Assembly: GCA_031269795.1 (NCBI GenBank)
Contig: JAISYR010000021.1
Coordinates: 3,818-67,817, forward strand
Direction: 5' to 3'
From: Puniceicoccales bacterium
GTDB taxonomy: Bacteria; Verrucomicrobiota; Verrucomicrobiia; Opitutales; JAIRKQ01
DNA: 64,000 bases
The notes below the pieces were generated by a model. It had not been told where the DNA came from and ran no database searches. It saw only the letters and a program-made list of their open reading frames with translations. Numbering within the stretch: the stretch's first letter is position 1; the number at the start of each line of letters is the position of its first letter. This document shows, in pieces, positions 25,638 through 26,665 of this stretch. Both the position numbers and the translations under genes were made by a program.

Positions 25638-25763
25638 ATGGATAGCATTAATACTATAATAGGTTATGGAATATACACCCAGAGGGATCTAGGCTATGGA
25701 AAGCCATTGGCTCCAACGGATTTGTATGATGTAGACTCGATTCATAAAAAAAAGGAGGGTTGA
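25638..25763 (+). pseudogene. 41-codon leader-only stub (unit A3)
   Basis: MDSINTIIGYGIYTQRDLGYGKPLAPTDLYDVDSIHKKKEG*; homologous to the A1 and A2 N-termini; ends inside hairpin H1. Confidence 0.8.
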
Positions 25764-25851
25764 CAAAATTGAACCTATGAAGGCGGATATACGATCTCTA
25801 CCGCCAACTTTATCCGAACTTTTCAACCCTCTCACTGCCTCTGCCTGTCTA
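25754..25851 (-). repeat. 98-bp structured repeat H, copy 1
   Basis: 4 mismatches versus 26568-26665; nested inverted repeats GAGGGTTGA/TCAACCCTC and GGCGG/CCGCC; followed by T8 on the minus strand. Confidence 0.9.
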
Positions 25852-25876
25852 GCGATAGACTATCAATGACCCCATA

Positions 25877-26251
25877 TTAGAAATGGGAACGGGGATCAAT
25901 TAAAGTAAGGCTGAGAAGATAAAGAGAACCCAAGCGATCTATCTCCCTGGGGCTCCTATATGGTAATGTACATACCATTTCTATACCTAGTGCTATTCTT
26001 AGCATATTTAGTAGTACTGCGTGTCCCCTTATCATCGCTATTATCCCCATTATCTCTGTTGTAAGAATAAGCAGATCTAATCTTCTTGTTGATAATTGCC
26101 GCTCTATCCATTCCCTCACCGGTATAGCTCTCAGTCTTTCTATCAGCGTACCTATTCGTCCCCTCGCCGGTACATCTTCTTCTCTTACTCCTGCATGTTC
26201 CTGCAATGGTAATAGAGGTTCTCTTGGTTCTCCAATATTTCCTGCGTTCAT
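25877..26251 (-). CDS. Orphan 124-aa protein (B1) with hydrophobic central segment
   Basis: ATG-started ORF with a strong A-ending codon bias (ATA, CTA, GTA, AGA); stop 25 bp before H1. Confidence 0.6.
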   Translation of the reverse strand: MNAGNIGEPREPLLPLQEHAGVREEDVPARGRIGTLIERLRAIPVREWIERQLSTRRLDLLILTTEIMGIIAMIRGHAVLLNMLRIALGIEMVCTLPYRSPREIDRLGSLYLLSLTLIDPRSHF

Positions 26252-26567
26252 AAATTTAAATTATCTTCTTTTGTTAAAATTTCAAATTTCACATAATTTT
26301 TCATAAAATATTATGTAATAACACATGCGTAGCATACGGAAGACAAAAATCAACAAAAAAGAATAGTTTTTAAAAAAGTTGACAATTTTCGAAAACATTG
26401 AGTTCCCGCACACTGGAACGAACTACGGGAAAACTTTACCCTAGAAAGAGTCCAGACGAATTGCCAAACGGAGTGGAAAATAAATGAAAATTGCCGTTAA
26501 TATTTCTACCTTTGGAGTGGGATCAGTATAAGGCTACATTGTCGAGTTTTGTCGGCCATAGAAAGAG

Positions 26568-26665
26568 GGAGAGTTGACAAAATTGAACCTATGAAGGCGG
26601 ATATACGATCTCTACCGCCAACTTTATCCGAATTTTTCAACCCTCTCACTGCCTTTGCCTATCTA
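26568..26665 (-). repeat. 98-bp structured repeat H, copy 2
   Basis: See copy 1; lies 12 bp after the stop of B2. Confidence 0.9.

Follow-up and report, generated by a model that had tools for sequence, protein, structure and literature searches.

Palindromic elements directly behind genes are known from several systems, i.e., from Rho-independent terminators, from the attC sites of integrons, and from dispersed repeats of the REP/BIME (repetitive extragenic palindrome), ERIC, Correia and RPE types. Conserved 5' regions that are combined with variable gene bodies are found in the multigene families of the Mycoplasma vsp/vlp loci. The locus described here shares features with all of them. It lies in a 64-kb stretch of the 87.6-kb contig JAISYR010000021.1 of a Puniceicoccales bacterium (assembly GCA_031269795.1), and this whole stretch is called the window in the following. 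At this locus two copies of an imperfect hairpin element, termed H, follow two open reading frames (ORFs) on the minus strand, B1 and B2. Judged from the sequence, H is probably an unusually long, lineage-specific intrinsic-terminator-like or 3'-stabilising hairpin within the intergenic module of a hypervariable gene array.

Comparison with described systems

Like Rho-independent terminators, H is a co-oriented stem-loop located a few nucleotides past a stop codon, it has a G/C-rich base (GGG/CCC) and a U-rich tail (U8 in the copy H1), and it is swapped with a canonical terminator palindrome in sister modules. Unlike these terminators, which usually comprise 20-40 nt, H is 78-85 nt long and imperfect, with several internal loops and a bulge, and the typical architecture of a 5-14-bp stem with a 3-8-nt loop is not seen. 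The U-tract of H is interrupted in most copies, and in the 5' half about 50 nt show sequence conservation, which is also unlike this class.

H resembles integron attC sites in that the unrelated ORFs of a tandem array are directly followed by an imperfect palindrome, one strand of which is more stable than the other. However, attC sites have the order R'' RYYYAAC ... R' GTTRRRY, whereas in H GTT precedes AAC on both strands. The arms read 5' GGGTTGA and 3' TCAACCC on both strands, and the candidate heptamers, GTTGAAA/GTTGTAA and TGTCAAC/TACGAAC, break the RRRY and RYYY positions. The outer stem of H is broken by a bulged G (or A), the position of which varies between the copies, and it cannot be equated with the extrahelical bases of attC. 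Unlike compact and mostly promoterless integron cassettes, the units of the array have a presumed promoter/5' untranslated region (UTR) module of about 300 nt. Neither IntI nor attI nor Pc was detected in the window, and, again unlike integrons, the H copies lie at one chromosomal locus and evolve vertically together with their flanks.

With the REP/BIME, ERIC, Correia and RPE-type repeats H shares the size of about 100 nt, the palindromic nature and the 3' intergenic location, and like them it could stabilise the upstream mRNA. Unlike these families, which have tens to hundreds of dispersed copies, H is confined to one array in the DNA searched, it has no target-site duplication, and the window contains no cognate transposase (insertion sequence or RAYT type).

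The resemblance to the Mycoplasma vsp/vlp loci is an analogy only. In both cases tandem genes share the upstream region and the first codons, the gene bodies are hypervariable, and the non-coding sequence is more conserved than the coding sequence. Unlike in Mycoplasma, no phase-variation machinery (invertase, promoter repeats) was seen here, and the proteins do not have a lipoprotein signal.

Two copies of H in the window

The initial annotation had described two hairpins that are identical at 94 of 98 positions and lie 25 and 12 bp behind the stop codons of B1 and B2. The coordinates and gaps were reproduced: H1 (25754-25851) and H2 (26568-26665) have four differences, and they follow the minus-strand ORFs B1 and B2 after 25 nt and 12 nt, respectively. 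The repeat extends to 109 nt with 94% identity (25743-25851 and 26557-26665) and includes an identical core of 60 nt. Exactly two H copies are present within the 64-kb window, and none was found in shuffled sequence.

H1 belongs to a truncated intergenic module, of which only the H part is left (25733..25854, minus strand; covariance-model match with 111 bits, E 1e-28). Its hairpin core comprises positions 25754-25833 and is followed on the minus strand by U8 (the plus-strand A-run 25746-25753), which starts one base past the stem. About 9 nt of post-hairpin module sequence (AUGAAUCGA) are left before an antisense gene stub, A3. H2 belongs to the complete module that follows B2, of which it forms the H part (26548..26668, minus strand; covariance-model match with 117 bits), and its hairpin core (26568-26647) is followed by the pyrimidine-rich tail CCCUCUUUCUAUG. 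All copies other than H1 have 3-5 U inside such a pyrimidine tail.

The minus-strand stems that had been named, i.e., GAGGGUUGA/UCAACCCUC, AAA(G/A)UU/AAUUUU and GGCGG/CCGCC, are present in the folds of H1 and H2, and the minus strand is indeed the more stable one. The fold energies are -34.2 kcal/mol for H1 and -35.0 kcal/mol for H2 on the minus strand (z about -2.1 and -2.4), compared to -27.7 and -28.1 kcal/mol on the plus strand. Of the two differences that fall into the stem, one changes G.U to A-U and the other G-C to G.U when read on the minus strand, and comparison with outgroups revealed that both are H2-specific changes.

Two further features within H were considered and rejected. A small plus-strand ORF (ATG at 25776, 30 aa in H1) contains three internal H1/H2 differences, all of which are non-synonymous, and its ATG is deleted in the related locus L011. 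A plus-strand TTGACA promoter has no -10 box at a distance of 16-18 nt and is not conserved in L011.

Six copies at a single locus in four genomes

For comparison with relatives, 30 loci were taken from a genome contig collection and eight were fetched via protein look-ups; the searches covered 36 loci with 445 kb, and together with the window the search space of nhmmer and the covariance model was 509 kb. The housekeeping genes of the relatives have 88-95% DNA identity to those of the window. Both methods retrieved six H copies in four genomes (E 1e-28 to 1e-34). In addition to H1 and H2 these are one copy in L011 (3452-3560; Cc175_bin120), one in L033 (3978-4103) and two in L034 (10285-10407 and 11304-11428; Ncb351_bin8). 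All six are situated at a single locus beside rpmI-rplT, 4-53 nt past a stop codon and in the same orientation as the respective gene.

H2 is the orthologue of the copies in L011 and L033 and of the first copy in L034. In the case of L011 the flanks are also conserved, and window positions 26276-28131 align with L011 3830-2022 at 87%. In L034 the layout is the same as in the window (gene-H-P-gene-H, P being the remainder of the intergenic module): a B2 homologue is followed by H, a spacer, a 223-aa gene and a second H. The H copies within one genome are more alike (95-98% for the two L034 copies, 91-96% for H1/H2) than copies from different genomes (76-88%), which fits a local duplication or conversion in the array.

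Further candidates were attributed to chance. The next best covariance-model match after the six copies, at L003 20433-20576, is weak (E 0.075) and lies inside a thioredoxin gene, and nhmmer matches in L013, L025 and L012 had E values of 0.85-3.2. Both methods detected no H in the array of L035. Two stretches of the H core, 22 and 27 nt long, had no exact match in the genome and metagenome contig collections, from which the source metagenome-assembled genome (MAG) is apparently absent, and H was also not matched in viral contigs, phage records or plasmid records. The search against Rfam, a further check of the initial annotation, did not identify a known family: H in the window was unmatched at the gathering score and at E up to 10, and at the gathering score there was no match in L011, L033, L034 or L035.

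Conservation of the structure and strand preference

A common structure with 26 pairs is kept in all six copies, and 94% of its cells are paired compared to 51-63% with slid partners. The structure persists through a deletion of 12-16 nt in L011 and a divergence of about 20%, and it is kept in L033 and L034 although the register of the apical stem is shifted relative to the window. At two pairs series of compensatory exchanges were observed, namely G-C, G.U and A-U at pair 36/91 and A-U, U.G and U-A at pair 32/95.

Across the six copies there are 29 G.U cells and 5 A.C cells on the sense strand. The minimum free energy is lower on the sense strand in six of six copies, and the alifold energy is -17.5 kcal/mol for the sense compared to -10.9 kcal/mol for the antisense strand. 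This bias agrees with selection acting on the transcript of the upstream gene; some of it is built in, since the sense strand was used to derive the structure. The initial annotation had claimed a strand-specific covariation. The substitutions are as it stated, but the statistical part of the claim, which rests on two substitutions in the window, was not supported: any transition in a Watson-Crick stem keeps a wobble pair on exactly one strand, and two of two differences in favour of the minus strand thus have p = 0.25. The covariance-model search of the relatives yielded more copies, all six at one locus and with the pairing kept, and the covariation among them was not significant.

An alternative, mutually exclusive helix, CGGAUA/UAUCCG, had also been described. 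Both window copies are able to form it, and L011 uses it, but L033 and L034 lack the 3' partner, and therefore a conserved structural switch is not supported.

The H+P module and the variable gene array

H represents the first 115 nt or so of an intergenic module of about 400-450 nt, termed H+P. Five complete spacers (B2-B1 in the window, L011, L033 and both of L034) can be aligned from the stop codon of the upstream gene to the start codon of the downstream gene, and in each of them H is separated from the next start codon by about 300 nt of conserved P. In the window, P (26252..26547, minus strand) is the rest of the module after H2 and presumably contains the promoter and the 5' UTR of the next gene. 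It is 82-92% identical to its counterpart in L011 and contains an invariant block, AAAACTATTCTTTTTTTGTTGATTTTT, as well as a degenerate remnant of a slot for a canonical (T-type) terminator, the palindrome of which folds at just -4.2 kcal/mol.

P aligns with the modules of L033, L034 and L035 through the first codons of the downstream gene. Because the module homology enters these codons, the array genes share their N-termini, i.e., MNAGNI (B1), MNASNV (L033) and MDIGNI, MNIGNI and MNPGNV (L035). Past these residues the bodies are unrelated, and this is true for L033, L034, L035 and L037 in all mutual comparisons, while the modules are conserved. The difference is also evident between the window and L011, which have flanks that are 87-98% identical. 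The homology stops at the start codon, and the 124-aa B1 in the window stands against a 1174-aa protein of the A family (see below) in L011. Genomes with housekeeping genes that are about 90% identical thus carry wholly different small genes beside rpmI-rplT, and the locus is a hypervariable tandem array in closely related Puniceicoccales. It really is cassette-like, with conserved non-coding modules that alternate with unrelated gene bodies, and the layout of an ORF with a downstream hairpin that the initial annotation had likened to cassettes was borne out to this extent.

The organisation is most apparent in the array of L035 (10215-16661; Cd354_bin103, JAIRMM010000001). It has six units of 820-1076 bp, each of which is composed of a conserved spacer of about 300 nt and a different small gene that starts with M[ND]xGN[IV] and encodes a hydrophobic C-terminal part. 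The array terminates at an integrase-like ORF with an Arm-DNA-bind_3 domain, which is cut by the contig end. There is no tRNA gene within the L035 locus.

H as a probable terminator-like or 3'-stabilising hairpin

The modules without H (the second module of L033 and modules 1, 2, 3 and 5 of L035) have a canonical palindrome of 14-16 bp with a T-run, which folds at -17.6 to -21.8 kcal/mol. In the second spacer of L033 it reads CTTCAGGAGAAATTTT-TTAT-AAAATTTCTCCTGAAG followed by TTTTC, and in spacers 1, 2, 3 and 5 of L035 it reads TCGGGAGAAATTTT-CAT-AAAATTTCTCCCGA followed by ATTTTTC. Of the five modules that carry H, four have a degenerate version of the homologous slot (-1.3 to -4.2 kcal/mol), and L011, the fifth, lacks the anchor motif at that position. 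H and the canonical terminator thus have a complementary distribution, and therefore H is read as an alternative terminator or 3'-stabiliser. Such an alternation would be the pattern expected from two interchangeable terminators.

On the mRNA of the upstream gene, which corresponds to the minus strand of the window, H would fold with the base GAGGGUUG/C(A/G)AACCCUC, followed by a U/C-rich tail. It would end the upstream transcript, shield its 3' end, or both, and P would supply the promoter and the 5' UTR or leader of the next gene. That the window has two copies would be explained by a module that was repeated along with the units of the array, in the order B2-H2-P-B1-H1. A rearrangement would then have deleted the P of the second module and truncated the facing A3, leaving H1. 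The junction itself is visible. The initial annotation had placed H1 at the truncation of the A3 stub, and indeed the homology between A3 and A1 ends at 25729 and the H1 module starts at about 25733. Because H1 abuts this truncation and keeps about 9 nt of post-hairpin sequence, it is regarded as a truncated second module at a rearrangement junction. Both the function of H (termination or stabilisation) and its origin (duplication or gene conversion) are inferred, and the option of a 3' UTR RNA, one of several that had been listed, is the one favoured by the evidence.

Several observations weigh against this assignment. Typical intrinsic terminators are much shorter than H and less interrupted, and a consensus terminator scan did not report H. 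In H2 the U-tract is interrupted (CUCUUUCU), and the tracts of L011, L033 and L034 are short. The covariation among the six related sequences is not above that of shuffles (67 of 500 reach the observed score), and most stem positions show simple sequence conservation. The 5' half of H, with about 50 sequence-conserved nucleotides, is somewhat better conserved than its surroundings, which could point to a sequence-specific partner and not to a mere hairpin. Lastly, the part of the source genome that was searched is the 64-kb window, and there may be further copies elsewhere.

Alternative explanations

The conserved 5' half would also fit an intercistronic element for RNA processing or regulation, i.e., a hairpin cleaved by an RNase III-type enzyme, the 5' part of the leader of the downstream gene, or a small RNA. 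The RNase III sites of T7 and of rRNA are long double-stranded processing sites. With its long imperfect helix (more than 20 bp, interrupted by internal loops) H resembles such double-strand-specific sites, although this is a resemblance only. In addition, H is always contiguous with P, and the U-tract is weak in most copies. However, H1 persists with the best U-tract of all although neither P nor a downstream gene follows it, and the sister modules carry a canonical terminator in place of H. No conserved promoter is present in front of H, and the Rfam search was negative even at E up to 10. An element of this kind is rather unlikely.

H, together with P, could also be a recombination module, with the copies serving as homology arms or as a folded single-strand recombinase site by which gene bodies are swapped like cassettes. 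Several features of the locus speak for an exchange. The homology of the window to L011 is lost close to the start codon, with wholly different bodies behind it, and the same combination of unrelated bodies and conserved modules is found in L033, L034, L035 and L037. P-B1 is bracketed by direct H repeats, H1 lies exactly at the rearrangement junction, and the L035 array ends in an integrase-like ORF. On the other hand, the L035 array beside this ORF is entirely without H, the motifs and order of the attC core are not found, and every unit has its own P of about 300 nt, unlike compact integron cassettes. When 50 ORFs from across the 64-kb window were scanned against Pfam, no Phage_integrase domain, tyrosine recombinase, HUH enzyme or transposase was detected. 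Homologous recombination of the ordinary kind between the repeated modules, or conversion, would be sufficient, so that no dedicated site is needed. As an account of H, a recombination module is unlikely. Repeated H and P modules may nevertheless be the homology arms through which genes are replaced, and this would account for the entirely different gene bodies of close relatives; no sign of a dedicated site-specific system was seen. It is highly improbable that H serves a recombinase encoded elsewhere in the genome as a dedicated site, folded as a single strand, for the exchange of effector-like cassettes between H (3') and P (5'); if this were true, an intracellular-type lineage of the Verrucomicrobiota would have a chromosomal cassette system that differs from integrons.

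The palindrome might also be functionless, i.e., neutral intergenic DNA that was copied with an array unit and is palindromic by chance. The identity of the module between genomes (76-88%) is below that of housekeeping genes (88-95%), and the covariation is not significant; both points speak for this reading. Yet the hairpin has been kept in four genomes despite an indel of 12-16 nt, an apical register shift and a divergence of about 20%, the pairing of 94% contrasts with 51-63% in the slid controls, two pairs have series of the G-C, G.U, A-U kind, and the distribution of H is complementary to that of the canonical terminator. A neutral duplicate is therefore quite unlikely.

It is very unlikely that H is a mobile or dispersed palindrome, similar to a miniature inverted-repeat transposable element (MITE) or REP, that landed here twice: the window copies are sharply bounded with unrelated flanks on both sides, the stem would equal terminal inverted repeats, and H is present in some modules and missing from others, but all six copies in 509 kb share one locus and orientation, H2 is orthologous, flanks included, to copies in L011, L033 and L034, no target-site duplication, flanking direct repeats or clean empty site were found (H-type versus T-type modules represent replacement and not insertion), the window contains no transposase, and viral contigs, phages and plasmids gave no match. 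The proposals of the initial annotation that H is a new recombination site or a MITE/REP-like element were thus not supported, with six copies at one locus, no target-site duplication, no empty site, no attC motifs, and no integrase or transposase in the window.

Genes around the element

B1 (25877..26251, minus strand) encodes 124 aa, with the N-terminus MNAGNIGEP and a hydrophobic C-terminal half, and stands at the first gene position of the array. The start of B1 and the sequence upstream of it have homology to the starts of array genes in L033 and L035. The codon-usage score is borderline (0.10), and no credible homologue was found for its body. A match to the 6510-aa protein P0066 (E 1e-14) consists of 14 repeats matching at 26-29% and was rejected as not being credible homology. 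B2 (26678..26968, minus strand) is a conserved small gene of 96 aa, which is divergent from rpmI and anchors the array. Eight homologues share a conserved N-terminus of 40 aa, and they are always beside rpmI-rplT and divergent from it. B2 is syntenic in L011 and L032-L038, and the indels compared to L011 are in frame. The designation of B1 and B2 as orphan ORFs was therefore not supported, because B2 has these homologues and B1 shares its upstream module and the MNxGN start with array genes of the relatives.

The plus strand next to the array harbours tandem genes of the A family, i.e., A1 (22867-23478), A2 (23846-25366, 506 aa) and the A3 stub (25638-25763). A1 does not have the catalytic core because of an internal deletion. 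The A3 stub comprises the upstream module and the first 31 or so codons of an A-family gene (25638..25729, plus strand), and it is homologous to A1 and A2 up to 25729. A2 is followed by a canonical intrinsic terminator (25449..25470, plus strand; 9-bp stem, 4-nt loop and T-run), which has a twin after A1 at about 23655-23676.

A2 has 55 homologues, and all of those with an organism name stem from Puniceicoccales (Verrucomicrobiota) MAGs, while the rest are JGI proteins. Q220, C226, H414 and E416 are invariant in the family, and N417 and D419 are nearly invariant. The Gln/Cys/His pattern is papain-like, and the proteins are putatively cysteine-protease-like. The AlphaFold model is a confident one (pLDDT 86.7), with residues 1-62 disordered. 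The family has no Pfam match, no sequence match in the PDB and no significant PDB fold match (best E 0.37), and the cysteine proteases SpeB (streptopain) and IdeS appeared among weak matches only. Probing of metagenome contigs with an A-family alignment revealed no confirmed related locus. The 1174-aa protein at the first array position of L011 (3865-7389) carries in its N-terminal part about 15 repeats, each with a length of roughly 40 residues (LSSL..D.S.AFADRLLGCG.EG.GCL...), in front of an A-family domain, and this fusion links the array of small genes to the A family.

The wider region is a mosaic. The 3' end of an A-family gene with its terminator is present as a relic (26903..27036, plus strand) that underlies the 5' end of B2 and its upstream region (local alignment with 25354-25473: score 47, shuffle maximum 31). 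In L022, a more distant relative, an A gene is located immediately upstream of rpmI, and in L011 the orientation of the A-family gene relative to B2 is opposite. Downstream of A2, a B2-like start (MNIINH...) was observed on the antisense strand (25211-25381, minus), and therefore the 3' flank of A genes and the 5' end of B2 share ancestry.

On the other side of B2, the spacer to rpmI (26969-27220, 250 nt) is 90-98% identical to L011, which is above most of the neighbouring non-coding DNA. It might contain a leader of the L35/L20 operon, and Rfam gave for this spacer only a chance-level match to RsaE (E 8.3). The 3' end of rplT and the following sequence (27786-27923) are repeated about 1 kb further on (28782-28859; 88% and 79% identity). 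These direct repeats flank an unannotated ORF of 199 aa (27968-28567), so that a second gene here is bracketed by a duplicated flank. The other genes of the window have housekeeping functions and encode aminoacyl-tRNA synthetases, ribosomal proteins, RecA, LepA and Suf proteins. A termite-gut origin of the MAGs is suggested by the isolate names alone and was not confirmed by a literature search.

Significance

As a terminator-like hairpin H is ordinary in kind, and it is of modest use as an annotation marker; it might also represent a new RNA family for a poorly known clade. The architecture of the array around H is more noteworthy than H itself, and the sequences of the modules allow such arrays to be found and compared. 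The turnover of the array beside a tandem family of putative cysteine-protease-like proteins suggests a rapid turnover of secreted or membrane proteins in this uncultured, host-associated lineage.

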